From Candidatus Methanophagales archaeon (GTDB lineage Archaea > Halobacteriota > Syntropharchaeia > Alkanophagales > Methanospirareceae): a stretch of DNA of 64,000 bases. The translations under genes were made by a program, and so were the position numbers. Each line of letters begins with the position of its first letter. Positions within the stretch are counted from its first letter, which is position 1. Location of the stretch: positions 14,893 through 78,892 of the forward strand of contig JAFNKG010000001.1 of assembly GCA_017883965.1 (NCBI GenBank). The letters run 5' to 3'. Positions 7,247-50,645 of this stretch are shown piece after piece. Below the pieces are notes generated by a model. That model searched no databases. It saw only the letters and a list, made by a program, of their open reading frames with translations, and had not been told where the DNA came from.

Positions 7247-7273
7247 AGGAAGATCGAACTATTTATTGTTTAA

Positions 7274-19660: not shown

Positions 19661-19697
19661 CGTGTTGGTGGTTCAGCGGGTTAGCGTGTTGGTGGTT
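19650..19697 (+). repeat. tandem 24-bp direct repeat (cagcgggttagcgtgttggtggtt, two copies); left arm of an inverted repeat flanking the four-helix-bundle gene
   Basis: Exact tandem copies. The first copy overlaps the DUF99 gene stop codon. The inverse copy lies at 20083-20108. Confidence 0.8.
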
Positions 19698-21095: not shown

Positions 21096-21737
21096 CTATC
21101 TATACAAACTTCTTATAAAAAAAGTTTCGACCGTTTTCCACGACCGTCTCACGTAAGAAGGAATATCATCCAGTTCTTTTTCTTTTAGCAGCTCTTTCAG
21201 GAATTGAATGGTTTTCGGGTCCGCAGGATACCCGCTCCCTATCTCTGCCCCTATCTCCGCCTCAAGCTCCCTTATTGACCTATCCCGGTGCACCTTTGCA
21301 ACTATGGATGCAGCACTGACCACCGGGTAGCGTTCATCTGCTTTCCAGTTAGAAATTATTTCAATCACTCCTTTTCCTTCCCTTTCGTAGTTCAACCTAA
21401 GATTAGCAGCGAACCGTTCTGGATTTACATCTGCCGCATCAACAAAAGCCCTCTCCGGCTGAAAATGCATAATCACCGCAGAAAAAAGTTTGACCATGAT
21501 TTCATTTAAAGTATGCCTTTTTCTACCTTCATCTATCTCGCTTGCGGTCATCTCCACGATATGAACCTCAGTCGCTTCTTCTATGAGTTCCGCCAGGTAT
21601 TCCCGCTTCTTCGGGCTCAACTTCTTCGAATCTTTTACACCCATCGCTTTCAGCCCTTCAAAATTCAAAACCCCTGCAACAAACATTGACCCTATCACAG
21701 GACCTTTACCCGCTTCGTCAACCCCTATCTCCCTCAT
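21096..21737 (-). CDS. rnhB: ribonuclease HII
   Basis: MREIGVDEAGKGPVIGSMFVAGV matches the RNase HII N-terminus with the catalytic DEAG. Confidence 0.85.
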   Translation of the reverse strand: MREIGVDEAGKGPVIGSMFVAGVLNFEGLKAMGVKDSKKLSPKKREYLAELIEEATEVHIVEMTASEIDEGRKRHTLNEIMVKLFSAVIMHFQPERAFVDAADVNPERFAANLRLNYEREGKGVIEIISNWKADERYPVVSAASIVAKVHRDRSIRELEAEIGAEIGSGYPADPKTIQFLKELLKEKELDDIPSYVRRSWKTVETFFIRSLYR

Positions 21738-22684
21738 TTCGTGCTTAACTCCAATAAATCATTATATGCAGAGGTAGCGGCGATAGCGCCTTCCGCACAT
21801 GCCACTACTACCTGTCTCACTCCACCTGTTATGTCCCCTGCGGCATATACTCTTTCGAGGTTCGTCCTCTGGCTTTTATCTGCGATTATGTAGCCGTTTT
21901 TATCCATCTCAATACCCATTTGCGCTGCTAATTTATTTACAGGCTCTTCGCCAATTGATATAAACACACCTTCTACCGGAAATTCATCCTCAATCTCACT
22001 CTCTTTATCATAGCTAACAACACTTCTCACTGCTTTATCCCCTTTTATCTCTTTCACCACTGAATTCCACAAGATATGCACACCTGCCTCTTCCAGATTC
22101 TTTTGTAAATACCGCTCTGCCCTGAGCTTTTTCCTTCTATGAATCAGCGTTACCTCGCAGCCGATGTTTTTCAGATACAGAGCTTCTTTAACTGCTGAGT
22201 CCCCTCCCCCTACCACTATTACAGGTTTACCTTTGAAGAAGAAACCATCACAGGTAGCGCAATAGGATATGCCTCTTCCAAGAAATTCCGCCTCTCCCTT
22301 CGCTCCTAATCTCCTGTGTTTAGTTCCCGTGCTTAGTACCACCGCATTCGTAACATAGGAGTCTTTTTCCGTGAATACCACCAGCTCCATCTCTTTCTCA
22401 CTAAGCTCTATTTTTTTAACTTCTTCCAGCTCTTTTATCGCCACATATTCTGCCGCTTGCGCTTTCATCTTTTCCGCCAGTTCCATACCACCTATCCCCT
22501 TGAATCCCGGATAGTTCTCTATCACCGGTGCCTCATTTGATAATCCGCCGCCTATCCCCTTCTCAACCACCAATGTTTCCAATCCGCTTCTCACACTATA
22601 CATCCCGGCAGTCATCCCCGCAGGACCCGCTCCAACAACAATTAAATCGTAATCTTTTTCTTTTTTCATAATGTCGAATCCCAT
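21734..22684 (-). CDS. trxB: thioredoxin-disulfide reductase (FAD/NAD-binding)
   Basis: YDLIVVGAGPAGMTAG FAD motif, CATC redox-active disulfide, GGGDSA NADPH motif. Start trimmed to the internal ATG. The longer ORF-track version runs through tRNA-Val on the other strand. Confidence 0.85.
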   Translation of the reverse strand: MGFDIMKKEKDYDLIVVGAGPAGMTAGMYSVRSGLETLVVEKGIGGGLSNEAPVIENYPGFKGIGGMELAEKMKAQAAEYVAIKELEEVKKIELSEKEMELVVFTEKDSYVTNAVVLSTGTKHRRLGAKGEAEFLGRGISYCATCDGFFFKGKPVIVVGGGDSAVKEALYLKNIGCEVTLIHRRKKLRAERYLQKNLEEAGVHILWNSVVKEIKGDKAVRSVVSYDKESEIEDEFPVEGVFISIGEEPVNKLAAQMGIEMDKNGYIIADKSQRTNLERVYAAGDITGGVRQVVVACAEGAIAATSAYNDLLELSTK

Positions 22685-22747
22685 GAAAATAGAATTAATT
22701 TTATAAGCAGATGCATATCTTATAAATATAAGAATTACCCCATCTAT

Positions 22748-22820
22748 GGGCCCGTGGTCTAGTTGGAATGACGTCGCCTTGACGAGGCGGAGGTCATGCG
22801 TTCGAATCGCATCGGGCCCA
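22748..22820 (+). tRNA. tRNA-Val (anticodon GAC)
   Basis: Cloverleaf folds by hand. 7-bp acceptor stem GGGCCCG/CGGGCCC, anticodon loop UUGACGA, T-loop UUCGAAU. Confidence 0.85.
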
Positions 22821-22861
22821 CCTACACTTCTTGCTTTTTCTAAAAATCCTAATGACAAAAA

Positions 22862-22940
22862 CAAACTTTTTGCTTCGCAATTTAAAAGAAAGATTTGTTT
22901 TGAATTTTGAAACTATGATTTTGGATTTGTTTAGAGTTTA
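22862..22940 (+). repeat. T-rich conserved intergenic element (copy A) containing AAACTTTTTGCTTCGCAA...TTTGTTTTGAATTTTGAAA
   Basis: About 60 of 75 nt are shared with 47936-47995. The core aaactttttgcttcgcaa also occurs at 18455-18485. Confidence 0.6.
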
Positions 22941-23442: not shown

Positions 23443-24678
23443 ATGCTTATAGAAATGCCAAGGCATACGGAAATATTCGGCTCGGTGAAAATTCACGAGC
23501 TGCAGCGTGTATTAAAACTTGATTCCGGCGGCTTTGAAAATCCACGGGCAAAAGACATCTCCTTCGAAGAAATCAAGGATGTTTTTAGACATCTTGCAAT
23601 CGTTATACCAGTGAAGGATGAAAAAATACATTTGCTGGACGGTGTTTTAAGAGCGATTCCCTTTGACTGCTCTGTTATTGTGGTGTCAAACAGCGGGAGG
23701 GATGCACCGGATACCTACAAAATGGAAAAGGATGTGATAACAAAACTCCACGAGTTCTCACAGCAAGAAATTCTCATCATACACCAGAAAGACCCCGAAT
23801 TGGGCTTTGCTTTTTATGAAGCGGGATACGACCATCTTCTTGATAAGGATGGATTGGTCAGGGATGGCAAGTCGGAGGGTATGATTATAGGCATGATGCT
23901 TGCGAAATCGCTGGGGAAAGACTTTATCGGGTTTGCTGATGCCGACAACTACATTCCGAGTTCTGTGCGTGAGTATGTGTTGGATTATGCAGCAGGATTC
24001 TGTATGTCTGAGTCGCCATACAGCATGGTGCGGCTTCACTGGAGATATAAGCCAAAGGTGGTGGAGGATAAACTTTATTTCAAAAAATGGGGCAGGGTAA
24101 GCGAGACCACAAACAAGTATCTCAATCTTCTGCTCTCAACATGCACGGGATTTGAGACCGGGGTTGTGATAACGGGAAATGCGGGCGAGCATGCGTTGAC
24201 GACAAAGCTCGCGGATATAATGAACTATTCGACCGGCTATTCAGTCGAACCATATCACTTCGTTTATTTGTTTGACGAATTCGGACTGAAGACAGAAGAT
24301 ATAGCGTATCCTGATGCTGTAAGTGCAGGAATTGAGATTTTTCAGATAGAGACGTTAAACCCACACATACACGAAGAAAAAGGGGAGGAGCATATTAATA
24401 ACATGCTGCTTGGCTCACTCCGAACGGTTTACCACAGTAAGCTCTGCAATGATTATGTAAGGCTAAAAGTTCTTGAGGAGCTGGGTGATATTCTGGAGTT
24501 GGAAAAGCCCAAAAAGAACATCATAATGCCCCCTATTGGAGGGATTGATACAAGTAAATTTACAAAAATGCTGGAAAGCAATTCAGAAACATTTGTAAGG
24601 TTTGAACAGGGGGCTATTGTGCGTGAAATAGAAAAGGAGCAGTATTTGAAAGGAGAAGCTTTTCAAATAAGCACATGA
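23443..24678 (+). CDS. mpgS: mannosyl-3-phosphoglycerate synthase (GT55)
   Basis: High similarity along the whole length to Pyrococcus MPGS (EIFGSVKIHELQRV..., IVIPVKDEKIHLLDGVLRAIP, HQKDPELG, FQIETLNPHIHEEKGEEH). Start placed at the ATG at 23443 by homology. Confidence 0.85.
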   Translation: MLIEMPRHTEIFGSVKIHELQRVLKLDSGGFENPRAKDISFEEIKDVFRHLAIVIPVKDEKIHLLDGVLRAIPFDCSVIVVSNSGRDAPDTYKMEKDVITKLHEFSQQEILIIHQKDPELGFAFYEAGYDHLLDKDGLVRDGKSEGMIIGMMLAKSLGKDFIGFADADNYIPSSVREYVLDYAAGFCMSESPYSMVRLHWRYKPKVVEDKLYFKKWGRVSETTNKYLNLLLSTCTGFETGVVITGNAGEHALTTKLADIMNYSTGYSVEPYHFVYLFDEFGLKTEDIAYPDAVSAGIEIFQIETLNPHIHEEKGEEHINNMLLGSLRTVYHSKLCNDYVRLKVLEELGDILELEKPKKNIIMPPIGGIDTSKFTKMLESNSETFVRFEQGAIVREIEKEQYLKGEAFQIST

Positions 24679-25481
24679 AAAAAGTTCTTTTCACAGACCT
24701 TGACGGAACCCTGCTCGACCTCTTTGACTATTCTTACGATGCAGCCCTTCCGGCTCTGGTAGCCTTGAAGAAGAGAAGTATCCCCATCGTGTTTTGCACG
24801 GCGAAAACATTAGCAGAGAACGAATACTACCGGAAGGAGATGGGAATAGAAGACCCTTTTATCGTAGAGAATGGTGGAGCGATTTTCATTCCTGAGAATT
24901 ACTTCTCTTTCGGTTTTGAGTGTGAGGAGAAGAGCAATTACTGCGTTGTTGAACTTGGTGCTTCGTATGGTGAGTTAAGGGGAGCCTTAAAGGAAATCAG
25001 GGAGGAAACAGGATTTAAAATAACCGGTTTTGGCGATATGACCGCAGAAGAGGTTGGAGAAGATGCGAACTTAAGTGTGGAGAAGGCGAAACTTGCGAAG
25101 ATGAAGGAATACAATGAGAGTTTCATCTTTGATGAACCAAAGGAGAAGGAGGCAATTTTGTTTGAGAAAATTAAAGAGAAGGGATTTAAGGTCACTCATG
25201 GGGGAAGGTATTACAACATTCACGGTAAGAACGCGGATAAAGGTAAAGCGGTGAAGATTCTCACAGAGTTCTTCAAGAAGGAATATGGAGAAGTGAAGAG
25301 CATAGGCATTGGAGATAGCATGAATGATATCCCGATGTTGAAAGCAGTGGAGCAGCCAGCGTTGGTAAAGAACAAAAAGGGTGCATGGCTTGATATTTCC
25401 CTGCCAAACCTTTATAAAGCGGAGGGGGAGGGACCGGAAGGCTGGGTTGAGGTCGTGGAAAAGATTATAATCAACAATTAA
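24675..25481 (+). CDS. mpgP: mannosyl-3-phosphoglycerate phosphatase (HAD superfamily)
   Basis: HAD motif I (FTDLDGTLL). Start overlaps the mpgS stop. Conserved mpgS-mpgP gene order. Confidence 0.75.
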   Translation: MKKVLFTDLDGTLLDLFDYSYDAALPALVALKKRSIPIVFCTAKTLAENEYYRKEMGIEDPFIVENGGAIFIPENYFSFGFECEEKSNYCVVELGASYGELRGALKEIREETGFKITGFGDMTAEEVGEDANLSVEKAKLAKMKEYNESFIFDEPKEKEAILFEKIKEKGFKVTHGGRYYNIHGKNADKGKAVKILTEFFKKEYGEVKSIGIGDSMNDIPMLKAVEQPALVKNKKGAWLDISLPNLYKAEGEGPEGWVEVVEKIIINN

Positions 25482-25500
25482 GTGATATTGAAGTAGAGAT

Positions 25501-28119
25501 ATGACAAGCGGAAAGACAGAGGAAAAAGATACGATTTACCTTGTCCCACACACGCATTACGATGCCATCTGGGTATTCACGAAGGAGGACTATTTTTACA
25601 TCAATCTGATGCTTATTTTGAAGGAGGTAGTTGAGCTTCTTGAAAAGACGGATTACAAGTTCCTGATAGAGCAAACCTTTCTGCTGGAAGAGCTGGAGAT
25701 GCGGTATCCGGAACTATTCTCAAAGGTTGCGAAGTACATAAAAGAAGGAAAGATAGAGATCGCCGGCGGGGAATACCTGATGGCAGATACGATGCTTCCG
25801 AATGGAGAAACACTGGTAAGAGAAATCATGGTTGGTAAGAGATACGTGAAGGAGAAGTTCGGTGTTGACGTTCCGGTAATGTGGCAGGCAGACAGCTTTG
25901 GTTTGAATGCCCAGCTACCGCAGATATACAAAAAATCAGGCTACAAATATGTTGCATTCAGAAGGGGTACAGCGAAGAGAAAGCCGTCGGAATTTATCTG
26001 GCAGGGCTTGGATGGAACGGGGATTTTAGCACACTGGATGCTTCTTGGATACAGAGCAGGATTGGACTTGACACAGCTGGCGGAAAGCCATGATAAACTC
26101 AAGGAAGTCGCAGCAACTTCGCATATCTTGATGCCTTCCGGGAGTGGAGTTACGATGCCACAACCGGAAACGGTGGAAGTGGTGAAGGCGTGGAATGAGA
26201 AGAGAGGCGAAGTAGCGGAGATGAAAATTGCAACGCCGGGTGAATTCTTTGAAGCACTGGAGAAGGAAGTAGAAGACCTGAACCTTGAGGTGGAGGTAAG
26301 GAAGGGCGAGATGTATTCGGGGAAGTATTCAGAGGTGTTTCCAAATTGCTGCTCGAGCAGGATGTGGATAAAACAGGGGCTTCATGATTACGAGAGCTGG
26401 TTGTTGTGTTGCGAGCGATGGGGTGCAATATCCTATCTCTTGAGCGGCTACTATCCCTCTGATGAGTTCAGGGACTGCTGGCGTAAAAATTTGTTCATCG
26501 CATTTCATGATGTGGTTCCGGGGACAGGGATGGACCGGGGTTACGATGAGGCGAGGCAATATTTTGGCTTTCTCAAGACCAAAATGATAACACTCTGTCC
26601 TCGCATACTCTCTATGATAATAGAGGCTGAATCGGAGGAGGACGAAGGCGGAGTTGAAAGTGGGGATATAATTGTATTTAACTCGTTGTCGTGGGAAGTG
26701 AGGAACTGGATAGAGATGGAGTTGAACTTTGACAAAGGAAAAGTAATTGCGATTAAGGGATTGAAAAGCGGAGAAGAGGAAATAGATGTAGAGGTGATAA
26801 AATTTGCGAGGTATGAAGATGACTCGTTGAGGTCTGCGAAGATAGGATTTGTTCCCACGGTTCCTGCGCTGGGATATAAGCTGTATAGAATCCTTGAGCG
26901 TGCGCCGAAGCGGTATCGTTATGAGCCGAATTATATCATGATAAGAGGGAACACCATAGAAAATAGCTTCTTTGGGGTTGAGGTGGACCCTGCCACGGGG
27001 TTGGTTGACGTGATTCAAGGCGATAGGGAGAGGATTTGCACGGCGAATGAGCTTGTGCTGGAAGAAGAAACCGGCGACCTTTACTACCACCGGCAAACAT
27101 TGGACATCCCGTTGAAAACAGAGAAGGGAGAAGGAGTGAAGTATGGCTCGTTCAGGGTAGAGAACTTTTGGATAAATAAGAGTCCTTTGAGACGTGTTAT
27201 CAATGTCGAGACTAATTATTTTTCACTGCGCTGGCCGTACAGATTGACGGAGAAGATGGAGCCCCTTATATGGCGGCATAAATTCTTAGAGTGCAGAAAG
27301 AAAATAATAGTTTATAAGGACATTCCGAGGATAGATTTCATCACGCACGTAGAGGATAAGCATCCGAAGTCACGGCTCAGGGTCAGGTTCTCCACGGACA
27401 TAGAATCTTCGGCTTATTCCTGCGGTAGTCAATTTGGCGTTGTTTCCCGCCCGACAGACCAATGGAGCTATAAACCAGAAGAGGAGTGGGTTGAGGAGCC
27501 CTGTGGTGTATTTCCCTCGATAGGATGGCTTGATTATTCTGACGGAAAGAAGGGCTTGACCGTGATTCACAGGGGGATACCGGAGAACGAGGTAAGAGAT
27601 GGCGACATCTATTTAACACTGCTCAGAAGCGTTTTAATGCTCTCCTCGGATGGTAAGACAGGTCCTGCAATACCGGTTCCGAATGCGCAGGAGTTGAAAA
27701 GATACGTATTCCGATATTCCATTTACCCGCACGAAGGAGACTGGCGTGAAGCATCATCCTACAAGCATGCTTATGAGTTCAACTCCGATCTGGATGCAGT
27801 GCAATTGTCTGATGGCGTGAAACTACCTTTGAAACGGTCTTTTTTGAAAATAGAGCCGGAAAGTGTTGTTTTATCCGCACTGAAAAGGGCAGAGGATGGG
27901 GATGGGGATGGGGATAGAGTGATTATGAGATTTTATGAAACGAAGGGAAAAGAGACGAATGCTGAAATAACGCTGTTCAGAGAGCCAAAGGCAGTCAAGG
28001 TGGTGAACCTGCTGGAGGAAGATGACGAAGGAGTGGAAAAAGAGTTGAAAAAAGCGGGTGAGAGAATTGAGTTGAAGATGAAACCTTTTGAGATAGTTAC
28101 TTTGAAGATGCAACTTTAA
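25501..28119 (+). CDS. GH38-family alpha-mannosidase, copy 1 (candidate mannosylglycerate hydrolase)
   Basis: 872 aa. N-terminal YLVPHTHYDAIW, a GH38 signature. Lies immediately downstream of mpgSP. Confidence 0.85.
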   Translation: MTSGKTEEKDTIYLVPHTHYDAIWVFTKEDYFYINLMLILKEVVELLEKTDYKFLIEQTFLLEELEMRYPELFSKVAKYIKEGKIEIAGGEYLMADTMLPNGETLVREIMVGKRYVKEKFGVDVPVMWQADSFGLNAQLPQIYKKSGYKYVAFRRGTAKRKPSEFIWQGLDGTGILAHWMLLGYRAGLDLTQLAESHDKLKEVAATSHILMPSGSGVTMPQPETVEVVKAWNEKRGEVAEMKIATPGEFFEALEKEVEDLNLEVEVRKGEMYSGKYSEVFPNCCSSRMWIKQGLHDYESWLLCCERWGAISYLLSGYYPSDEFRDCWRKNLFIAFHDVVPGTGMDRGYDEARQYFGFLKTKMITLCPRILSMIIEAESEEDEGGVESGDIIVFNSLSWEVRNWIEMELNFDKGKVIAIKGLKSGEEEIDVEVIKFARYEDDSLRSAKIGFVPTVPALGYKLYRILERAPKRYRYEPNYIMIRGNTIENSFFGVEVDPATGLVDVIQGDRERICTANELVLEEETGDLYYHRQTLDIPLKTEKGEGVKYGSFRVENFWINKSPLRRVINVETNYFSLRWPYRLTEKMEPLIWRHKFLECRKKIIVYKDIPRIDFITHVEDKHPKSRLRVRFSTDIESSAYSCGSQFGVVSRPTDQWSYKPEEEWVEEPCGVFPSIGWLDYSDGKKGLTVIHRGIPENEVRDGDIYLTLLRSVLMLSSDGKTGPAIPVPNAQELKRYVFRYSIYPHEGDWREASSYKHAYEFNSDLDAVQLSDGVKLPLKRSFLKIEPESVVLSALKRAEDGDGDGDRVIMRFYETKGKETNAEITLFREPKAVKVVNLLEEDDEGVEKELKKAGERIELKMKPFEIVTLKMQL

Positions 28120-28147
28120 TAATAATTACAGGAGATTTAAATAAATC

Positions 28148-28894
28148 ATGAAGGCTGCTGTTGCACAAGTCAAGCTTTATGATGACATAGATGCCAATTT
28201 AATAACCATTTCTAAATATATCTCATTGGCATCGAAAGAGGAAATAGACATTTTGTGTTTTCCTGAATGTAATATTACTGGCTATGTGCGTGATTTTAGT
28301 AAAGTTAACCCGGATAAATTAATGGAAGCGTTGGATATTATTCAAGAACAGGTGGCGAAAGATTGTGTGAACGTTATTGTGGGAGCTCCTTATTTTGAAC
28401 GCGAGAAACGTTTTAATAGTGCAATAGTCCTGTTAACGAATGGAAAGCGGCATATTTATCACAAGATTAATCTCACTTCTTCTGAAGAAGCATATTTCAA
28501 AAAAGGTAAAAAACCATTAATTTTTCAGTTAGACGATGTTAAGTTCGGAGTTTTGATTTGCAGAGACCAGAACGATCCGATGCTCACTCGTGAATATAAA
28601 ACATCAGAGGCAGATGCTATCTTTATCCTATCGGCGCATTTTTATGAACCCATTGAAGCGATACGAAAACTAAATAAAAATAGGGCTTTGCCGATTGCGA
28701 GAGCTGTTGAAAACAATTTATTTGTACTTAAAGCCAATGCAGTTGGCTCAAATAATAAGAAAATCAGTTTAGGTGGAAGTTTGATTATAGATCCAGGAGG
28801 TTTTGTCATCCACGAAGGTAATAATATAAATGAGATGATATTGAGTTATGAAATACCAAAAAGAAATGCACAAAGAGAGAACAATTTAAAATAA
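28148..28894 (+). CDS. carbon-nitrogen hydrolase (nitrilase superfamily)
   Basis: 248 aa. CN-hydrolase E-K-C layout (FPEC...LICRD). Markedly AT-rich codon usage. Confidence 0.8.
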   Translation: MKAAVAQVKLYDDIDANLITISKYISLASKEEIDILCFPECNITGYVRDFSKVNPDKLMEALDIIQEQVAKDCVNVIVGAPYFEREKRFNSAIVLLTNGKRHIYHKINLTSSEEAYFKKGKKPLIFQLDDVKFGVLICRDQNDPMLTREYKTSEADAIFILSAHFYEPIEAIRKLNKNRALPIARAVENNLFVLKANAVGSNNKKISLGGSLIIDPGGFVIHEGNNINEMILSYEIPKRNAQRENNLK

Positions 28895-29671
28895 ATGACA
28901 ATCTTTCATAGAGCTGTAAATTTAAGAGATAGTAAAATGAGTACAGGGAAACATTTAGACCATAATCAGGAGTTACACATCGGGCTGCTTGTTCTTGCTA
29001 CAGACCCGACCGCCGAAACAGAATTCCGGAAAATGTTAAATACCGATAGGGTAGCGTTTTTTGTAAATCGCGTATATTATAAAAATCCAGTGACTATTGA
29101 AAACCTTCGCGCGATGGGAGATGATTTGACCAGAGCAACTTCGCATATCCTTCCAGAAAGTCATTTGGATGTTGTTGCCTATGCCTGCACATCAGGCACG
29201 GCTGCTATAGGAGCAGACAAAACAATTGAATATATACAACGAGCAAGACCAGGGGTTGCATGTACAACACCGCTTATAGCCGCATGCAAGGGTTTTACTA
29301 AATTGGGTGTGCATCGGATTGCACTTATTACACCATACAAAACCGAGGTTGATGATCTAATTAAAGGTTATTTTGAAGAACAAAACATTTCCATTGTTAA
29401 AAACACCAGTTTTGATTTAGAATCTGACGTTGAGATAGCTCGTCTGTCGGCATCATCAATTTATGATGCTGCCTGTGAGATTAATAACTCAAGAGTAGAT
29501 GGAATTTTTATCTCATGTACAGCACTAAGAGCTGCGGAAACAATAAAACCAATTGAAGAAGAAATTGGCAAACCTGTTATAACCAGTAATCAGGCACTCC
29601 TCTGGGATGCTTTACGACTCGGCGGCTACAACGATGTAATTCCCGGTTATGGCAAACTCATGGAGATTTAA
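28895..29671 (+). CDS. Asp/Glu/hydantoin racemase-superfamily protein (arylmalonate decarboxylase or maleate isomerase-like)
   Basis: 258 aa with two Cys-containing half-sites (YACTSG and ISCTAL). AT-rich. Confidence 0.7.
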   Translation: MTIFHRAVNLRDSKMSTGKHLDHNQELHIGLLVLATDPTAETEFRKMLNTDRVAFFVNRVYYKNPVTIENLRAMGDDLTRATSHILPESHLDVVAYACTSGTAAIGADKTIEYIQRARPGVACTTPLIAACKGFTKLGVHRIALITPYKTEVDDLIKGYFEEQNISIVKNTSFDLESDVEIARLSASSIYDAACEINNSRVDGIFISCTALRAAETIKPIEEEIGKPVITSNQALLWDALRLGGYNDVIPGYGKLMEI

Positions 29672-29717
29672 TATCTATATATAAAGTAAAGCACCCAAAT
29701 CCTAATAAGAAATAAAA

Positions 29718-30611
29718 ATGGATTTCGTAAAGGAAGAATACAGGACTCTGGCGGAAGATGAAACGGTAAGGAATAATAAAGAACTGATGGAACTCACGGG
29801 ATATAACAGCAAGCAACTTGACAAATTACCTCCAGATGCAATTATGGGCATCAGTTGTGGTAATCCAACCGTTGAATGTGATTTGTTGCCGGGAATGCGG
29901 ACACTGGATTTAGGTTGCGGTCCAGGAACAGATGTTTTGTTGTGTGCAATGAAGGTTGCACCTGATGGGATGGCCGTGGGTGTGGATTATGTTCCGGAAA
30001 TGGTAGAACGAGCCGTGCAAAACGCAAAGAAATGTCCAGATGTTGATGAAGATAACACCGACTTTAGAGTAGGTGATTTGAATGCGGGAATTAACTTTCC
30101 GGACAATTACTTTGATTATGTCACTGCTAACTGTTGTCTTTGCCTGTTGGATCAACCAAAGGTATTTCGTGAGGTAAAACGTGTGTTGAAACCCGGAGGA
30201 TATTTTGTCTTTAGTGAGGTAACGGTTAAGAAAACATTACCGCAGAAGGCAGATGACCTCTTACAAGAAGCTTTTGGCAATCAGGTGATCCCAAAAGGAA
30301 ATGATGTAGCAAGTAAAGTTTTCCGGACATATATAGCACTTGCAAAAGGGGAGGCAATAGTCCCATCAGAAATTTTAGACCTATTGAAAGAAGCAGGATT
30401 TCAAAAGGTAAAGATCATTGTTCCCAGACATGTACCTGGAACGAAAAAATATCCTGAAGCTGCTAAATCAACGCCGCGTATGGTAAGTGAAAAATTAACT
30501 CCTGATGGAATTACCGACTTTAAAAAGCGTCTTGATGGTGTTTTAAGTGATCTCGATATTAATGATTTTGCGTCATTTGATACTTTTTCATCCCAAAAAC
30601 CGGATAGGTAA
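29718..30611 (+). CDS. ArsM/AS3MT-like SAM-dependent methyltransferase
   Basis: GISCGNP...C...LDLGCGPGTD, ANCCLCLL and LKPGGYFVFSEV mirror the AS3MT motifs YGCG, ILDLGSGSG, SNCVINL and LKPGGELYFSDV. Confidence 0.75.
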   Translation: MDFVKEEYRTLAEDETVRNNKELMELTGYNSKQLDKLPPDAIMGISCGNPTVECDLLPGMRTLDLGCGPGTDVLLCAMKVAPDGMAVGVDYVPEMVERAVQNAKKCPDVDEDNTDFRVGDLNAGINFPDNYFDYVTANCCLCLLDQPKVFREVKRVLKPGGYFVFSEVTVKKTLPQKADDLLQEAFGNQVIPKGNDVASKVFRTYIALAKGEAIVPSEILDLLKEAGFQKVKIIVPRHVPGTKKYPEAAKSTPRMVSEKLTPDGITDFKKRLDGVLSDLDINDFASFDTFSSQKPDR

Positions 30612-30624
30612 TGAAATAAAAGAA

Positions 30625-30700
30625 AACGATGTCAGATACAGGATGCCTGATTCATGATACAGGTTTGACTTGCATCTTGTATCGTGTATCTTGCATCCTC
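30625..30700 (+). repeat. cluster of direct and inverted copies of a GATACAgGATGC-like motif
   Basis: agatacaggatgc, tgatacaggtttg, gcatcttgtatcg and gtatcttgcatcc lie in a convergent intergenic region (imperfect hairpin). Confidence 0.5.
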
Positions 30701-30736
30701 ACAATTTCTCCTGAAAGGAGCTAAATAAATGCCCCG

Positions 30737-31180
30737 TTATATTTCATAATCCGTATCTTTAACCTTCCTCATTACTACCTCAACGGTATAATTCTGGATT
30801 GGGAACTCGAACAAAAGTTTGTTATTTATAAACCGGGTTAAACTTTCCTCGTTATCAAATAGACCGATGGCGTTAATCGAGAACTGTCCTGTGGTCTGAT
30901 ATATCTTGATAAACTCATCCAGCTCTGTCAATTTAGGTAATGTGTTCCTCATCGCTTTTGGTTCTATCTCCAGATTAAATATCGCGATCAGCTTCTTACC
31001 AAATTTCCAGGGATTTAGCAATATTGTATAGCTCTTAATATAGCCGTCCTTCTCCAGCTTCTCAAGCCGGTATCTCACACCATTTTCACTCAACCCGACC
31101 TCGTTTGCAATCTTGGATATGGGTGTCCTTACATCCCGCTGAAGTATCTCGAGTATCCTATTGTCTACTTTGCTCACCAT
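30737..31180 (-). CDS. Lrp/AsnC-family transcriptional regulator
   Basis: HTH (ILEILQRDVRTPISKIANEVGLSENGVRYRLEKL) plus a C-terminal RAM domain. Divergent from ectA. Start trimmed to an internal ATG. Confidence 0.8.
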   Translation of the reverse strand: MVSKVDNRILEILQRDVRTPISKIANEVGLSENGVRYRLEKLEKDGYIKSYTILLNPWKFGKKLIAIFNLEIEPKAMRNTLPKLTELDEFIKIYQTTGQFSINAIGLFDNEESLTRFINNKLLFEFPIQNYTVEVVMRKVKDTDYEI

Positions 31181-31203
31181 TATTTGTATATAATAGCATA
31201 ATG

Positions 31204-31290
31204 TATTTAAAGCTTCCGAATCTTCAGAAAAATCTGGTTTTATCTTATTTATCCTCAAATAACCTATTTAAGGGGAGATAAGAAATAGTG
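31204..31290 (+). promoter_or_regulatory. about 85 bp promoter/5'-UTR element upstream of ectA (copy 1 of a duplicated element)
   Basis: tttaaagcttccgaatcttcagaaaaatctggttttatcttatttatcctcaaataacctatttaagg is about 90% identical to 33694-33780. Confidence 0.7.
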
Positions 31291-31317
31291 ATCTATAGAA
31301 TAGGAGGGATATGACTC

Positions 31318-33574
<2,257 letters not shown>

Positions 33575-33693
33575 GCATACAAACAAATACCTGGCACTTT
33601 ATTTGAAATAGGAATCTGAATGATGAAGAATTATCTCGAGAATCTTCTTACCGACTTAACCCACCCATCGTTTAGTGACAAACACGCTATCTA

Positions 33694-33780
33694 GTTAAAG
33701 CTTCCGAATCTTCAGAATAATCTGTTATTATCTTATTTATCCTCAAATAACCTATTTAAGGCAGTATAAGAAATATTTAC
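33694..33780 (+). promoter_or_regulatory. copy 2 of the duplicated about 85 bp promoter/5'-UTR element, upstream of the asnB-like gene
   Basis: agttaaagcttccgaatcttcagaataatctgttattatcttatttatcctcaaataacctatttaagg. Ends a few nt before the ATG at 33783. Confidence 0.7.
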
Positions 33781-33782
33781 CC

Positions 33783-35372
33783 ATGTGTTCGATATGTGGC
33801 TATTTTTCTCAGGAAGGGGTGCCGACGAGTATCGTTACCGATATGCTCCAAAAGACAGAGCATAGAGGTCCAGATGCGCATGGATTATATGCAGATGGAA
33901 AAATTCTGAGAAGTGGGGAGATAAGAGATTTGGAAAGCAGTGAAAAGGCAGAAGTTTGTCTAGGGCATTCGAGATTGAGCATCGGAGAAGACGATAATGC
34001 GATACAGCCATTACGGTCTTGTGATGGCTCTTTATCGTTAGTGCACAATGGCGAGATATACAACTACCGAGAATTAAGGGGACTATTGAGTAAAGATCAT
34101 ACAATAGAAGATGAGGACAACGACAGCGAGATTCTCTTGCATCTAATAGAGGAAATCTACGATGGCAATCTGCTGAAAACAGTGCAGTCGGTTGTAAAAA
34201 TGCTAAACGGCATGTACACCTTCGCAGTTACAGATGGCGATGAAGTCGTAATTGCACGGGACCCGGTCGGTATAAAGCCAATATATTATGTAGAAGAAAA
34301 AGGGGATGTCTATTTATGTTCTGAGAAGAAGGGGCTTTATGATATTGAAGGTAAAATCAAAAGGATACCTCCCGGAAAGATGCTGAGGGCAAATAAAGAT
34401 GGAATCACTCTACATCAGGGCGTGAGAATCGAGAGACCGCAGATTGATATTACGGATTTCAATAAAGCTGTGACTTTGTACAAAAATGCTTTAACTGATG
34501 CGGTTGAGGGGATGTTAAGGGGATTAAGCGTGGATGAGGTGGGGATGATATTCTCCGGTGGCGTGGATTCAGTATTGATTGCGAAGCTCATATCTGACTT
34601 CGGATGGAATCTCAGATGCTATTGCGTTGGTAAAAAAGATTCTGAGGATGTAAAGAATGCGGAAAATGTAGCGAAAGATTTGGGATTGAATTTAAGCGTG
34701 ATTTATATTGATGAGCGAAAAGTGGAGATGATACTTCCGGAGGTCATCGAATCCATCGAGACAGAGGGTCTCCTTCAGGTAGAGGTCGCTGTTCCGATGT
34801 ATCTTGCAGCAAAGGCGGCATCTGAAGACGGAATAAGGGTGATGTTCACGGGTCAGGGTGCGGATGAGTTATTCGCGGGTTATTGGTGGTATAAGGATGT
34901 TGTAAGTGAGGACGGGTTCTTGAAACTTCACGACAAGTTATGGGAAGACATTAATTTAGCCTATGACGATACGCTTGAAAGGGAAGATAAGGTTACAATG
35001 GCTCATTCCGTTGAGTTAAGGGTTCCATACTTGGATAGAAATGTTGTAAGATGCGCAATGAGAATTTCACCGAAACTTAAAATAAAGGGTGGTGAGGATT
35101 CGATCAGAAAATGGGTTCACAGAAGGGTTGCAGCGATGCTTAGTGTGCCGCACTACACTGCATATCGGGAAAAGGATATGGCACAGTCAGGATCGGGTGT
35201 GCATGGCCTGATAAAAAAGGTTGCAGAGGAATACTTTGACGGGAAAAAAGCGGACAAAGTCGAGACCGTGGATAAAGGCTCGAACTATCGCTACCTGGAT
35301 GGGGATTATGGAACGCTTGAGATGTGGGCATATCTGCACGAGATAGCAAGGAGCAATCAATGCCTTGAGTGA
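33783..35372 (+). CDS. asparagine synthetase B-type glutamine amidotransferase (class II Ntn N-terminus MCSICG)
   Basis: N-terminal catalytic Cys2, SGGVDS PP-loop, 529 aa. May be AsnB or an AsnO-like amidotransferase. Confidence 0.85.
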   Translation: MCSICGYFSQEGVPTSIVTDMLQKTEHRGPDAHGLYADGKILRSGEIRDLESSEKAEVCLGHSRLSIGEDDNAIQPLRSCDGSLSLVHNGEIYNYRELRGLLSKDHTIEDEDNDSEILLHLIEEIYDGNLLKTVQSVVKMLNGMYTFAVTDGDEVVIARDPVGIKPIYYVEEKGDVYLCSEKKGLYDIEGKIKRIPPGKMLRANKDGITLHQGVRIERPQIDITDFNKAVTLYKNALTDAVEGMLRGLSVDEVGMIFSGGVDSVLIAKLISDFGWNLRCYCVGKKDSEDVKNAENVAKDLGLNLSVIYIDERKVEMILPEVIESIETEGLLQVEVAVPMYLAAKAASEDGIRVMFTGQGADELFAGYWWYKDVVSEDGFLKLHDKLWEDINLAYDDTLEREDKVTMAHSVELRVPYLDRNVVRCAMRISPKLKIKGGEDSIRKWVHRRVAAMLSVPHYTAYREKDMAQSGSGVHGLIKKVAEEYFDGKKADKVETVDKGSNYRYLDGDYGTLEMWAYLHEIARSNQCLE

Positions 35373-35705
35373 CGGGCACATATAAAATGGCAAACTGTAT
35401 AGAACGGGCGTATATAAAAATATCCGAGCCGTAAAAATGAGAATAAACATTTTGCAGATAAACCATGATTCAACGGAAATATGAACAGGGTTCACTTCTC
35501 TTTTAGCGCGGGTTTTTTACGAAGTGAAAAGATTTTTTAAAATATCCGTTAATAAAACTACAGATATTTGTTAGAAAAATTCGATTCAACTGAGCCTTTT
35601 ATCTACTACTTTGTCTTTGTATATCTGAATCAATGAGAGCTATCAAAATACAACATTTTTTGAGACAATGTCGGTTCACAACTAAATAACGTCGAGAGGT
35701 AGGAT

Positions 35706-38321
35706 ATGGCAAAAGGGGAAACTACAAGGGGCGAAAAAGATACGATTTACCTCGTTCCACACACGCATTACGATGCCATCTGGGTCTTCACGAAGGAGGA
35801 TTATTTTCATATCAATCTGCTGCTTATTCTGAAGGAGGTAGTTGAGCTACTTGAAAAGACGGATTACAAGTTCCTGATAGAGCAAACCTTTCTGCTGGAA
35901 GAGCTGGAGATGAGGTATCCGGAACTATTCTCAAAGGTTGCGAAGTACATAAATGAAGGCAAGATAGAGATTGCCAACGGGGAATATCTGATGGCAGATA
36001 CGATGCTTCCGAATGGAGAAACACTGATAAGAGAAATCCTGGTTGGCAAGAGATACGTGAAGGAGAAATTCGGGGTTGACGTTCCGGTAATGTGGCAGGC
36101 AGACAGCTTTGGTTTGAATGCCCAGCTACCGCAGATATACAAAAAATCAGGCTACAAATATGTTGCATTCAGGAGGGGGGTAGCGAAGAGAAAGCCGTCG
36201 GAATTTATCTGGCAGGGCTTGGATGGAACGGGGATTTTAGCTCACTGGATGCCTTTAGGATACAGAGCAGGATTGGACCTGACACAGCTGGCGGAAAGCC
36301 ATGAGAAACTCAAGGAAGTAGCGGCGACCTCGCATATCTTGATGCCTTCCGGAAGTGGAGTTACGATGCCTCAGTCGGAAACGCCGGAGGTTGTGAAGGA
36401 GTGGAATGAGAATAACGGAGAATGGGCGAAGATTAAGATTGCAACGCTGAGTGAATTCTTTGAAGCACTGGAGAATGAAGTAGAAAACCAGAAGCTTAAG
36501 ATGGACGTGCGGAAAGGTGAGATGTATTCAGGGAAGTATTCCGAAGTTTTTCCAAATTGCTGCTCGAGCAGGATGTGGATAAAACAGGGGCTTTATGATT
36601 ACGAGACTTGGTTGTTAAGTTGCGAGCGATGGAGTGCAATATCTGCCATCCTGAATAGCCACTATCCATCAGAGGAGTTGATGAACTGCTGGCGGAAAAT
36701 TTTGTTCATCGCATTTCATGATGTAATTCCGGGAACAGGGATGGACAGGGGTTACGATGAGGTGAAGCAGTACATGAGCTTTCTCAAGACCGAGATGTCC
36801 ACCCACTGCCTTCGCGCACACACTCAAATAATAGAGGAGGAATCAAAGGAAGGCGAAGGCGAAGTTGAAAGCGGGGATATAATGGTATTTAACTCGCTGT
36901 CTTGGGAAGTGAAGAACTGGGTAGAGATGGAGTTGAATTTTGAGAAAGGGAAAATAGTAACGATTAAAGGCTTAAAGAGTGGAGAAGAGGAGATAGATGT
37001 GGAGGTGATAAAGTTTGCGAGGTATAAGGATGATTCGTTGAGGTCTGCGAAGATAGGATTTGTTCCCAAGGTTCCTGCGCTTGGATATAAGGTGTATAAA
37101 ATCCTTGAGCGTGAGCCGAAACGGTATAGTTATGACAAGAATTGTATCCTGATAAGAGGGAACACGATAGAAAATAGCTTCTTTGCGGTTGAGGTGGACC
37201 CAGCCACGGGGTTGGTTGACGTGGTTCAAGGCGATAGGAAGAGGATTTACACGGCGAATGAGCTTGTGCTGGAGGAAGAAACCGGCGACCTTTACTACCA
37301 CCGACAAACATTGGGCATCCCGGTGAAGACGGAAAAGGGAGAAGGGGTGAAGTATGGCTCGTTCAGGGTAGAGAACTTCGGGATAGCTAAAAGTTCTTTA
37401 AGGCGAGTTGTCAACGTCGAGACCAATTATTTCTCCCTGCGCTGGCCGTATAGATTGACGGAGAAGATGGAGCCAGTTATATGGCGGCATAAATTCTTAG
37501 AGTGCACAAAGAAAATAATAATTTATAAAGACATTCCGAGGATAGATTTCATCACGCACGTGGAGGATAAGCATCCGAGGGCACGGCTCAGAGTAAGGTT
37601 CTCCACGGACATAAAATCTTCGGAGTATGCCTGCGGTAGTCAATTTGGCGTTGTTTCCAGACCGACGGACCAAGCGAACTACAAGCCAGAAGAGGAATGG
37701 GTTGAGGAGCCCTGCGGTGCATTTCCTTCGCTGAGGTGGCTCGATTATTCTGACGGAAAGAAAGGCTTGACCGTGATTCACAGGGGGATACCGGAGAACG
37801 AGGTAAAAGATGGTGACATCTATTTAACACTGCTCAGAAGCGTTTTAATGCTGTCCTCGGATGGTAAGGCAGGTCCTGCGATACCTGTTCCGAATGCGCA
37901 GGAGTTGAGAAGATACGAATTCCAATATTCCATTTACCCGCACGAAGGAGACTGGCGTGAAGCATCATCCTACAAGCATGCTTATGAGTTCAACTTCGAT
38001 CTGGATGCAGTGCAGTTGCCGAAAGGCGTGAAACTACCTTTGAAACGGTCTTTTTTGAAAATAGAGCCGAAAAATGTCGTTTTATCCGCACTGAAAAAGA
38101 CAGAGGATGGGGATGGGGGAGTGATTCTGAGATTTTATGAGACGAAGGGGGAAGAGACGGATGCTGAGATATCACTGTTCAAAAAGCCAAAGGCAGTCAA
38201 GGCGGTGAATCTGCTGGAGGAAGAGGACGAAGGAGTGGAAAAAGAGTTGAAAAAAGCGGGAGATAAAATAGAGTTGAAGATGAAACCCTTTGAGATAGTT
38301 ACTTTGAAGGTGAACATTTAA
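35706..38321 (+). CDS. GH38-family alpha-mannosidase, copy 2
   Basis: 871 aa, about 88% identical to copy 1 over the full length. Confidence 0.85.
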   Translation: MAKGETTRGEKDTIYLVPHTHYDAIWVFTKEDYFHINLLLILKEVVELLEKTDYKFLIEQTFLLEELEMRYPELFSKVAKYINEGKIEIANGEYLMADTMLPNGETLIREILVGKRYVKEKFGVDVPVMWQADSFGLNAQLPQIYKKSGYKYVAFRRGVAKRKPSEFIWQGLDGTGILAHWMPLGYRAGLDLTQLAESHEKLKEVAATSHILMPSGSGVTMPQSETPEVVKEWNENNGEWAKIKIATLSEFFEALENEVENQKLKMDVRKGEMYSGKYSEVFPNCCSSRMWIKQGLYDYETWLLSCERWSAISAILNSHYPSEELMNCWRKILFIAFHDVIPGTGMDRGYDEVKQYMSFLKTEMSTHCLRAHTQIIEEESKEGEGEVESGDIMVFNSLSWEVKNWVEMELNFEKGKIVTIKGLKSGEEEIDVEVIKFARYKDDSLRSAKIGFVPKVPALGYKVYKILEREPKRYSYDKNCILIRGNTIENSFFAVEVDPATGLVDVVQGDRKRIYTANELVLEEETGDLYYHRQTLGIPVKTEKGEGVKYGSFRVENFGIAKSSLRRVVNVETNYFSLRWPYRLTEKMEPVIWRHKFLECTKKIIIYKDIPRIDFITHVEDKHPRARLRVRFSTDIKSSEYACGSQFGVVSRPTDQANYKPEEEWVEEPCGAFPSLRWLDYSDGKKGLTVIHRGIPENEVKDGDIYLTLLRSVLMLSSDGKAGPAIPVPNAQELRRYEFQYSIYPHEGDWREASSYKHAYEFNFDLDAVQLPKGVKLPLKRSFLKIEPKNVVLSALKKTEDGDGGVILRFYETKGEETDAEISLFKKPKAVKAVNLLEEEDEGVEKELKKAGDKIELKMKPFEIVTLKVNI

Positions 38322-38328
38322 TTCAATT

Positions 38329-38871
38329 TCAACGCAGCTTCAACTTTTCAACCAGCTCATCCAAATAACTTCCCCATTCCTCTTCGCTCATATTCGGAAA
38401 CGACATATCGGCATTTGGATGGAAGAACCTGCAAAGCGTGATTGTCCTCAGCCAGGGTGCGAAATGCTTAAGCGTGGACAGCCCTTGCGAGCTTATATAA
38501 TAAAGCACACCAAGGAACACGACGAGGTCATGCTGCCCTTCTCCTTTTACCCCTTTCCATTCCGCATCTCTCAACCTGTCTATTATGTTTATAATCGGCA
38601 TGCTGGCATCTGGCGGGAACTCCTTTTCCAGGAATTCTTTTAGTGTGTGTGCAACCGCAACTGTTGGCATTTTCGATTCCTTCGCTATTTCTATCGCATA
38701 ATCCATCAAACTCTTCCCATTAAGCTCTGTTTCTAAAACGAGCGAGCCGACGATGAAAAGAGGTCGTTTTGCCTCCTTTATTGCCCTTACTGCAACCGCA
38801 GGTGTTAAAATCTCTCCACGACGTGGACCTGGTATGTTTGCTATATCCCAGGGATCATTTTTTTCTACCAT
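38329..38871 (-). CDS. cdhB: CO dehydrogenase/acetyl-CoA synthase complex epsilon-subunit-like protein
   Basis: 180 aa. PGPRRGE...AIKEAKRPLFIVGS and C-terminal HPNADMSFPN recall the CdhB N- and C-termini. Last gene of the cdhA-containing operon. Call made from memory of the family and is not certain. Confidence 0.6.
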   Translation of the reverse strand: MVEKNDPWDIANIPGPRRGEILTPAVAVRAIKEAKRPLFIVGSLVLETELNGKSLMDYAIEIAKESKMPTVAVAHTLKEFLEKEFPPDASMPIINIIDRLRDAEWKGVKGEGQHDLVVFLGVLYYISSQGLSTLKHFAPWLRTITLCRFFHPNADMSFPNMSEEEWGSYLDELVEKLKLR

Positions 38872-49641: not shown

Positions 49642-49649
49642 TCTACTCC

Positions 49650-49883: not shown

Positions 49884-49975
49884 ATTTATCTATTATCATC
49901 TTCTATTAAAAAGGATTTATGCCTTACCTTATAATAAAGGTATTGAACTCGTGTATAAGACACTGATGGTGACAA

Positions 49976-50635: not shown

Positions 50636-50645
50636 AGAGGCAACA

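Follow-up and report, generated by a model that had tools for sequence, protein, structure and literature searches.

A compatible-solute locus of an ANME-1 archaeon with an inherited mannosylglycerate core, an inserted ectoine operon and a candidate amidation module

A metagenome scaffold of a Candidatus Methanophagales archaeon (assembly GCA_017883965.1, contig JAFNKG010000001.1) was analysed over 64,000 nucleotides, here called the window, and carries at 23443-38321 the intact synthesis genes of two compatible solutes, mannosylglycerate (MG) and ectoine. Comparison with related metagenome loci (numbered with the prefix L) shows that this locus is an inherited core of the anaerobic methanotrophic archaea of group 1 (ANME-1) with two inserted cassettes, rather than one horizontally assembled island. 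The core comprises the MG synthesis genes mpgS and mpgP, genes of glycoside hydrolase family 38 (GH38), a carbon-nitrogen (CN) hydrolase gene, an Lrp/AsnC-family regulator gene and an AsnB-family amidotransferase gene (asnB); the cassettes are the ectoine operon ectABC and a pair of EutA-like and methyltransferase genes. Taken as a whole, it is probably, though far from certainly, an ANME-1 compatible-solute locus made up of an inherited MG core, an amidation module and these two inserts. By family membership, MpgS and MpgP would make MG from GDP-mannose and 3-phosphoglycerate. Judging by gene context, a cytosolic GH38 enzyme would split it into mannose and glycerate for turnover, disposing of MG together with a glycerate kinase. 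The AsnB-family enzyme and the CN hydrolase would form the amidation module, in which the former would adenylate and then amidate the MG carboxylate to give neutral mannosylglyceramide and the latter would either supply the ammonia or reverse the amidation, and in this lineage mannosylglyceramide synthesis would be tied to ectoine synthesis via a duplicated Lrp-controlled promoter. From its gene content the cell would be able to make anionic MG, zwitterionic ectoine and possibly neutral mannosylglyceramide.

Inherited core and inserted cassettes

In relatives the core occupies one chromosomal spot, in the order L21e, mpgS-mpgP, one or two GH38 genes, CN hydrolase, Lrp and AsnB-family gene. The layout of L163 and L180 runs from RNase HII, thioredoxin reductase (TrxR) and L21e through mpgS-mpgP, a 158-residue open reading frame (ORF), two GH38 genes and the CN hydrolase to Lrp (on the minus strand), the AsnB-family gene and EF-2, with no ect gene there. 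The more distant L170 (Methanospirareceae) has L21e, mpgS-mpgP, a single GH38 gene, the CN hydrolase, Lrp and the AsnB-family gene, and the ask-ectABC genes of that assembly are found on a separate contig (L070). The order in L102 is GH38-CN hydrolase, Lrp, methyltransferase-HAD and AsnB, with no ect in this layout, and mpgS adjoins L21e in L163, L170 and L083 as well. Core order and left flank (RNase HII, TrxR, L21e) are kept out to Methanospirareceae, at 68-73% DNA identity. The archaeal affiliation of the window is marked by TFIIB, L21e, CdhA/CdhB and an HdrA2-MvhD fusion, and the nearest public EctC, AsnB-type and CN hydrolase proteins bear ANME-1, Methanophagales or Halobacteriota names.

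Aligned as DNA with L163, the window is collinear apart from two gaps. The first, at 28867-30604, holds the EutA-like and methyltransferase genes, which are missing from L163, and the EutA-like gene is absent from L170, L180 and L102 too. Immediately downstream, window 30612-30736 corresponds to L163 9314-9436 (97.6% over 123 nt), representing the CN hydrolase 3' end in its original form and the spacer to Lrp. A short common motif, GT(T/A)ATGAAATA, occurs at both junctions; together with the displaced remnant, it indicates that the EutA-like/methyltransferase pair was inserted into the last CN hydrolase codons, the last ~28 nt of this gene now being new sequence that arose from the downstream insertion. 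As a separate observation, the identity of this 125-nt non-coding remnant to L163 stands against a locus average of ~87%, which fits either strong constraint on the 3' region where the two genes converge or recombination over this tract in recent times.

The second gap, at window ~31297-33627, holds ectABC. A tract of ~155 nt that lies 5' of asnB in L163, covering the 5' end of Lrp and the whole divergent intergenic region, is found twice in the window, once before ectA and once before asnB, and 33628-33694 aligns, with mismatches and a 1-nt insertion, to the Lrp 5' ends of L163, L170 and the window itself. These alignment gaps and the duplicated flank identify ectABC as the insertion and the CN hydrolase, Lrp and AsnB-family genes as those of the host. 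The AsnB-type gene and the CN hydrolase are thus no accessories of ectABC; they belong instead with the MG genes or with the Lrp unit. An ectABC-AsnB arrangement in L003 had made an ectoine accessory role a candidate for AsnB, which was ruled out by the relatives with CN hydrolase-Lrp-AsnB and no ect and by the recognition of ectABC as the insert.

Through the ~155-nt duplication, ectA and asnB each carry the same promoter/operator element of ~96 nt beside the Lrp gene. The two copies are 86% identical over 96 nt, share an exact core 29-mer (0 expected by chance) and hold a TATA-like CTATTTAAGG plus a conserved upstream block, GAATCTTCAGAA. Six relatives also have the element, each time in front of asnB, ectA or another inserted gene: it lies 5' of asnB in L163, L164, L170, L102 and L003, and 5' of ectA in L003 and L004. 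Further copies were sought before mpgS and GH38b, where there are none, the whole window holding two. Such an architecture suggests joint control of ectABC and asnB by the Lrp protein encoded beside them, which has the N-terminal helix-turn-helix and C-terminal RAM/AsnC ligand domain of its family. The Lrp gene, initially called as a 173-aa ORF starting at TTG, is set by its homologues in L163, L164, L170 and L180 at 147 aa, with an ATG at 31181.

In the initial annotation the whole 15-kb stretch had been viewed as a horizontally assembled osmoadaptation island that included glycogen genes. The bacterial ancestry of ectABC, the AT-rich block from CN hydrolase to Lrp and the two insertion scars speak for such an origin, and an AT-rich CN hydrolase gene in L163 and L164 too is consistent with an older transfer. 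Insertion does hold for ectABC and for the EutA-like/methyltransferase pair. For the core, however, horizontal assembly is largely refuted: the core sits at the same site in L163, L170 and L180 with only the two inserts being lineage-specific, its order and left flank are kept in ANME-1, the GC content of mpgS-mpgP-GH38 resembles that of the host, and Pfam scans of the window genes revealed no integrase or transposase in the region. Nor are the glycogen-type genes part of the cluster, since an NTP-transferase and two GT4/GT5 glycosyltransferases lie at 12.4-16.5 kb, 7 kb upstream behind housekeeping genes. As an account of the entire stretch, an island is improbable. A search of plasmids with MpgS gave no match.

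The "AT-rich 3-gene island" described within the locus is indeed AT-rich, with GC at third codon positions of 0.26-0.33 in the CN hydrolase, EutA-like, methyltransferase and Lrp genes versus 0.45-0.59 in their neighbours, and the lowest-GC 750-nt stretch of the entire window begins at 28251. However, the genes concerned are these four, and they do not form a unit, as the block mixes the core CN hydrolase with the two-gene lineage-specific insert. The EutA-like protein scores below the EutA cutoff (Table 1), no eutB or eutC homologue occurs among the cluster genes, and the solved structures nearest to the protein are those of arylmalonate decarboxylase and maleate isomerase.

The ectoine operon is complete, in the order ectA-ectB-ectC with 4-nt overlaps and with all three products above curated NCBIfam cutoffs. 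EctC aligns gap-free to the S. alaskensis enzyme (5BXX), and was also aligned to 5ONO; it keeps the iron ligands Glu57, Tyr85 and His93 plus Trp21, Arg25, Thr40, Tyr52 and Phe107, while the substrate-contact residue Asn38 is His, the same as in the active SaEctC (residue roles from PMC6344544). A loss of metal-binding residues, which would have marked a non-functional ect paralogue, is therefore not seen. Archaeal ect genes are rare and of bacterial origin by lateral transfer, a 2018 review having found 20 EctC-type proteins among 1,325 genomes of archaea, with Nitrosopumilus, Methanosaeta and Methanobacterium named (PMC5924519). In a tree of 78 EctB sequences (neighbour-joining with simple distances, as for all trees here), the archaeal sequences form one clade with support of 100/100, nested among bacteria and containing the window, ANME-1, Methanospirareceae, Methanotrichaceae and one Desulfobacteria-binned contig. 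The operon of the window is thus of bacterial ancestry, and its completeness and rarity among archaea, both already pointed out in the initial annotation, stand. Separately, L004, binned as Desulfobacteria, carries CN hydrolase-Lrp-ectABC 63-84% identical to the window with the same archaeal element, and probably comes from the ANME-1 member of a syntrophic consortium, having been mis-binned. No prior report of ect or MG genes in ANME-1 was found in the searchable literature.

Profile scans found all 13 genes of the initial annotation in the places it had given them (Table 1).

Table 1. Features of the compatible-solute locus, in window coordinates
Feature	Position	Strand	Evidence
mpgS, mannosyl-3-phosphoglycerate synthase	23443-24678	+	TIGR02460 525.7 bits (cutoff 351.2), PF09488 500.9 bits
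mpgP, mannosyl-3-phosphoglycerate phosphatase (HAD-IIB)	24675-25481	+	TIGR02461 268.3 bits (cutoff 244.35)
GH38a, GH38 alpha-mannosidase-family	25501-28119	+	four GH38 Pfam domains
CN hydrolase (nitrilase superfamily), "type M"	28148-28894	+	PF00795 107.9 bits
EutA-like / arylmalonate-decarboxylase-superfamily gene	28937 (or 28895) to 29671	+	PF17645; TIGR02990 255.7 bits, below cutoff 318
SAM (S-adenosylmethionine)-dependent methyltransferase	29718-30611	+	PF13847 93.9 bits; ArsM-like 136.7 bits, below cutoff 263
Displaced CN hydrolase 3' end and CN hydrolase-Lrp spacer remnant	30605-30736		match to L163
Lrp/AsnC-family regulator	30737-31181	-	HTH_24 (PF13412), HTH_AsnC (PF13404), AsnC_trans_reg (PF01037)
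Promoter/operator element copy 1, 5' of ectA	31201-31296	+	96-nt direct repeat
ectA	31318-31869	+	TIGR02406 198.1 bits (cutoff 120.6)
ectB	31866-33179	+	TIGR02407 671.3 bits (cutoff 552.2)
ectC	33176-33574	+	NF009806 211.7 bits (cutoff 128)
Decayed Lrp 5' coding-end remnant	33628-33694		aligns to Lrp 5' end
Promoter/operator element copy 2, 5' of AsnB-family gene	33689-33784	+	96-nt direct repeat
AsnB-family glutamine amidotransferase	33783-35372	+	GATase_7 and Asn_synthase; TIGR01536 328 bits (cutoff 267)
GH38b, GH38a paralogue	35706-38321	+	four GH38 Pfam domains

Probable mannosylglycerate turnover and the GH38 paralogues

Both MG synthesis genes exceed their equivalog cutoffs, MpgS matching TIGR02460 over nearly its full length (profile positions 2-382 of 383), and mpgP overlaps mpgS by 4 nt; the public gene call also puts the mpgS start at 23443. 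The GH38 gene that follows mpgP encodes a protein with N-terminal, middle and C-terminal family domains above gathering scores, as does its paralogue, and the motifs that hold the metal ligands and the nucleophile (HTHYD, QADSFG, FHDV) align with those of Ams1 (6LZ1). The N-terminus starts straight with the GH38 domain, and the predicted enzymes are consistent with a cytosolic location.

The association with MG was examined in 80 metagenome loci carrying GH38a relatives at 53-80% identity, a set that is biased by the fishing route and includes near-duplicates (e.g. L145, L146 and L148), with the result that counts from this and the other locus sets overstate independence. Within it mpgP adjoins GH38 in 58 loci, mostly in the order mpgS>mpgP>GH38>, and mpgS is near GH38 in 39, many contigs being cut short. 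A glycerate 2-kinase (DUF4147+MOFRL) stands directly beside GH38 in ten loci, including GCK>GH38> pairs (GCK being the glycerate 2-kinase gene) that have no mpgSP and the ANME-1-type L086, and a ManC-type mannose-1-phosphate guanylyltransferase/isomerase adjoins it in seven of the 80. The order mpgS-mpgP-GH38 is kept down to 53% GH38 identity across Archaea and Bacteria. From this adjacency to mpgS/mpgP, glycerate 2-kinase and ManC, hydrolysis of MG, with mannose and glycerate as products, is the most likely reaction of the GH38 enzymes. The link between GH38 and MG suggested in the initial annotation has therefore become much stronger; the comparison made there with MngB does not extend to equivalence, since the MngB equivalog (NF007331) has a cutoff of 1138 bits and the two copies reach 278.8 and 307.8. 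No prior description of GH38 together with mpgS was found in the searchable literature.

It could also be that these are general cytosolic alpha-mannosidases which recycle oligomannose or N-glycan fragments and stand after mpgP by coincidence. Their closest solved relatives are cytosolic or vacuolar alpha-mannosidases such as Ams1, they are not MngB equivalogs, several ANME-1 copies of the second paralogue lie away from mpgSP (L084-L087, L091), and a protein O-mannosyltransferase-family gene is present at window 61816-63669. However, a coincidence accounts poorly for a gene order kept to 53% identity in both domains and for the adjacent glycerate 2-kinase in ten loci, some of them with no mpgSP, and we consider this explanation unlikely. 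Separately, MttB-family methyltransferase genes occur near GH38/mpgSP in archaeal and bacterial loci (L093, L099, L129). The MttB family includes methyltransferases for glycine betaine and other quaternary amines, and this proximity may be a further link to osmolyte metabolism.

The second GH38 gene, noted as a ~88% identical paralogue downstream, is 88.9% identical to the first in DNA and shares 742 of 874 amino acids (85%) with it. The similarity is limited to the ORFs (25522-28120 versus 35733-38322, with a gap of 7.6 kb) and includes identical runs of up to 98 nt. The ratio of nonsynonymous to synonymous substitution rates (dN/dS) between the two is 0.26, which indicates that both genes are maintained. 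GH38a and GH38b group with L163 GH38_2 and L102 (bootstrap 89 and 93), GH38a being nearly equidistant from both L163 paralogues with no hybrid pattern. The presence of two paralogues is ancestral to this ANME-1 subgroup and does not go back to a local event. Integration of the Campbell type at GH38 was tried as an explanation and rejected, given that the similarity ends at the ORF limits, sliding windows gave no clean hybrid and relatives have tandem pairs; a segmental duplication with reciprocal loss is possible for the GH38 repeats. The 158-aa ORF between mpgP and the first GH38 gene in L163 (2575-3051) and L180 (3963-4439) has no Pfam match and does not occur in the window.

For a metagenome scaffold with such long identical runs between paralogues, it has to be considered that two strains were joined into a chimera during assembly, and that the second GH38 gene and the unusual gene order are products of this. 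Yet both copies are complete and differ throughout, they are not similar beyond the ORF limits, independent metagenome-assembled genomes also have GH38 genes in tandem and the dN/dS value is that of maintained genes. Moreover, a second public contig (80 kb, NCBI) encodes an identical AsnB protein and mostly the same neighbour proteins, and for this reason the gene order was not taken as an assembly artefact. A chimera is very improbable.

A candidate amidation module

The CN hydrolase has the Glu-Lys-Cys triad of its superfamily (FPEC, HKINL, LICRD), in alignment with the glutaminase domain of NAD synthetase (5KHA), and its best matches are the glutaminase domains of glutamine-dependent NAD synthetases. 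It is not itself such an enzyme: it covers the N-terminal glutaminase part of NF010588 alone (91.7 against 479 bits), and its partner is of the AsnB family. The family, called type M here, looks small, with 204 matches among 524 word-sharing candidates scored, ranked from ANME-1 over Methanospirareceae to Chloroflexota-named proteins. A CN hydrolase 41-51% identical to that of the window is carried by 12 of the 80 GH38-anchored loci, and an AsnB-family gene by all 12. Four look-ups anchored on the CN hydrolase led to six loci, all with an AsnB-family gene and four of them with MG genes, three look-ups giving MG clusters and one a surface-glycan cluster. In the loci examined, type M CN hydrolase is always beside an AsnB-family gene, and usually in MG clusters.

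The AsnB-family protein of the window keeps the glutaminase motifs with Cys2 (MCSICG, HRGPD, HSRL, NGEIYN, DSE) and the pyrophosphate loop (PP-loop) SGGVDS of asparagine synthetase B. The canonical TT(I/V)R motif is replaced by LQVE, though, and GEG by GQG, exchanging Glu348 for Gln; the pattern.Q.E/GQG is common to relatives from ANME-1, Methanosarcinales, Deltaproteobacteria, Chloroflexota-type loci, L111, L130, L171 and L173. Glu348 has a role in canonical asparagine synthetase and is counted here with its aspartate-site signature. Arg325 of TT(I/V)R has been linked to the binding of aspartate and the formation of beta-aspartyl-AMP (PMC12018205, citing Boehlein 1997). Because this aspartate-site motif is replaced, the protein was not filed as a canonical asparagine synthetase, even though it scores above the TIGR01536 cutoff.

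Together with mpgS, mpgP or GH38, the module occurs in six arrangements, namely in ANME-1, Chloroflexota-type loci, L130, L171/172, L173 and L111, the last of which lacks the CN hydrolase. In a bacterial group, some of whose proteins bear Chloroflexota names at NCBI, the operon order is mpgS-NTP transferase-AsnBfam-mpgP-CN hydrolase, convergent with GH38, and L147, a sister of these Chloroflexota-type loci, lacks both the CN hydrolase and the AsnB-family gene. MG has one carboxylate. The simplest function for an adenylating amidotransferase whose gene lies in or next to the mpgS-mpgP set is to amidate MG or the phosphorylated precursor of MG. The expected product, mannosylglyceramide, was reportedly described in the late 1990s. 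Rhodothermus marinus has it as a neutral solute, with a preference for it when salt is high (PMC1224877, a 2005 review). No biosynthetic gene for it, and no prior description of MG in connection with an amidotransferase or nitrilase, was found in the searchable literature. That the CN hydrolase/AsnB-family pair represents the missing genes of a switch between MG and mannosylglyceramide in ANME-1 and sediment bacteria is put forward tentatively, as a proposal that may well fail, and a step from MG to mannosylglyceramide in this archaeon, suggested by gene context, is likewise doubtful. The step is likelier for the bacterial operons, in which both genes lie within or directly beside the mpgS-mpgP set, than for ANME-1.

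Several points weigh against the amidation of MG in ANME-1 and against the wider account. The nearest homologues of the window AsnB-family protein are from Methanosarcinales (63-64%) and Deltaproteobacteria (52-53%), where they are not beside MG genes and pair with other CN hydrolase types. L003 and L164 have CN hydrolase-Lrp-AsnB with no MG genes nearby, and the protein passes the asparagine synthase cutoff and adjoins an AsnC-type regulator, as in ordinary asparagine synthesis. In a glycan cluster that has no MG genes, the partner of a type M CN hydrolase is of a third AsnB subfamily, a pairing which makes the module generic, so that its substrate has to be read from gene context. The adjacency in ANME-1 could be that of two neighbouring units kept by descent, and with synthase and hydrolase on one transcript, some post-transcriptional control would be needed. 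The window AsnB and that of the Chloroflexota-type MG operon were also considered as orthologues, which is not supported, their identity being 30-37% compared with 52-53% to the deltaproteobacterial homologues.

Alternatively, the AsnB-family protein could be an ordinary asparagine synthetase under a divergent AsnC-type regulator, with a CN hydrolase that is unrelated or omega-amidase-like and an accidental adjacency to MG genes; ectABC would then have borrowed an aspartate/asparagine-responsive promoter. In keeping with this, the glutaminase motifs and PP-loop are intact, and the nearest homologues outside ANME-1 stand in housekeeping surroundings (thermosome, eIF-1A, EF-2). However, the exchange of TT(I/V)R for.Q.E and of Glu348 for Gln extends across the subfamily, type M and AsnB-family genes are found within or beside mpgS-mpgP sets of unrelated bacteria, and the two were lost together in L147. 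An asparagine synthetase is a serious alternative, although we think it rather unlikely.

If the pair does form an amidation module, the CN hydrolase may be an ammonia-supplying partner rather than a reverse amidase. This idea comes from the degenerate glutaminase domains of the AsnB-family partners in the Chloroflexota-type loci, L171 and L173, and from the precedent of NAD synthetase, for which a stand-alone nitrilase-like glutaminase subunit is known in Thermus thermophilus (PMC3376133). The intact glutaminase of the window protein makes such a role less certain there. A role as simple reverse amidase was weakened as a candidate in that the hydrolase also pairs with an unrelated AsnB subfamily and Chloroflexota-type partners have degenerate glutaminases.

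Some further observations concern the two families. Several of the ANME-1 AsnB-family orthologues (P0009, P0017, P0036, P0042 and that of L170) have Glu in place of the glutamine-binding Arg of HSRL, which is kept in the window and in canonical enzymes, and judging by this residue their own glutaminase may be impaired. At L178/L179 6947-9729, a 56%-identical CN hydrolase follows a 645-aa AsnB-family gene of another subfamily in a surface-polysaccharide cluster, which also holds GT4s, an epimerase and a glycerophosphotransferase and has no MG genes; this suggests that the CN hydrolase/AsnB-family pair is a portable amidation module. The ANME-1 relative L003 carries at 4844-7469 two CN hydrolases of different types with a truncated thermosome gene between them, the second being 70% identical to the one following AsnB in the Methanosarcinales contig L176.

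Wider significance and comparison with known systems

Elsewhere in the window, cdhB (38329-38871) and cdhA (45444-47798) lie ~6.5 kb apart; in archaeal carbon monoxide dehydrogenase/acetyl-CoA synthase operons they are usually side by side. An HdrA2-MvhD fusion, a DUF7479/BrnT-like toxin pair, an HdrA-like gene and an FrhB/HdrC-like fusion are found between them. A tRNA-Val gene (22748-22822) falls inside the N-terminal 70 residues of a thioredoxin-reductase-like ORF (21734-22864), the start of which is probably overcalled. A gene for a 23S rRNA intervening-sequence or bAvd-like four-helix protein is present at 19681-20049, and cytochrome c maturation genes (CcmC-like, ABC ATPase, CcmB) at 48554-51338 fit the multihaem cytochromes of ANME archaea.

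The locus provides two concrete candidate genes for mannosylglyceramide, which makes an orphan pathway testable; if they do encode it, the neutral amide would be used by ANME-1 and abundant sediment bacteria (of a group that includes Chloroflexota-named members) and not only by Rhodothermus. The data also point to a widespread GH38 MG hydrolase inside the synthesis operon, often with a glycerate kinase, which would explain how MG pools are drawn down. Gene sets for both MG and ectoine in ANME-1 bear on the salinity and temperature range of these uncultured methane oxidisers, and the insertion scars are an unusually clean case in which a bacterial operon, after its transfer, came into an archaeal regulon through duplication of a host promoter/operator. 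Many database entries named asparagine synthetase B are without the aspartate-site signature.

Compared with known systems, the MG synthesis genes resemble the MpgS/MpgP pathway of Pyrococcus, Thermus and Rhodothermus, both products lying above equivalog cutoffs and the genes being adjacent and overlapping. Here, however, the operon runs on into GH38 and CN hydrolase, and the host is an ANME-1 archaeon. MngB of E. coli is of the same glycoside hydrolase family, is the only NCBIfam match of the window GH38 and shares with it a link to mannosylglycerate. The substrate of MngB is the solute in phosphorylated form, once it has been taken up, whereas the window genes are far below its cutoff, have no phosphotransferase system partner among the window ORFs scanned, and stand in a synthesis operon or, in relatives, beside a glycerate kinase. 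The GH63 hydrolases (MgH of Thermus, mycobacterial GgH) and cyanobacterial GghA have the same proposed role, the intracellular mobilising of a glycoside solute, GghA being encoded beside synthesis genes; the window enzymes differ from them in fold and family.

The AsnB-family protein shares an N-terminal nucleophile (Ntn) glutaminase and a PP-loop adenylating domain with AsnO of N-acetylglutaminylglutamine amide (NAGGN) synthesis, LtsA/AsnB1, WbpS-type uronamide synthases and beta-lactam synthetase. Among these, AsnO has an amide osmolyte as its product, and sugar acids are what the WbpS type amidates. Unlike these, the window protein belongs to the distinct.Q.E/GQG subfamily, which has no curated model, and is systematically paired with a CN hydrolase. 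Glutamine-dependent NAD synthetase, with its two-subunit form in Thermus thermophilus, similarly combines a nitrilase-like glutaminase with an adenylating amidotransferase, but the partner here is of the AsnB family instead of NadE and in the window keeps its own intact glutaminase domain.

The ectoine genes are like those of bacteria and of the archaea Nitrosopumilus, Methanothrix (Methanosaeta) and Methanobacterium in forming a complete ectABC with catalytic residues, and cluster with Methanotrichaceae. As in the archaeal clusters there is no ectD, which is expected for an anaerobe (PMC5924519). They differ from known ect clusters in lacking ask_ect (present in L070), in having the Lrp/AsnC protein of the host locus as regulator and in being embedded in an MG cluster, and ANME-1 is not listed with the archaeal carriers of ect in the 2018 review (PMC5924519).

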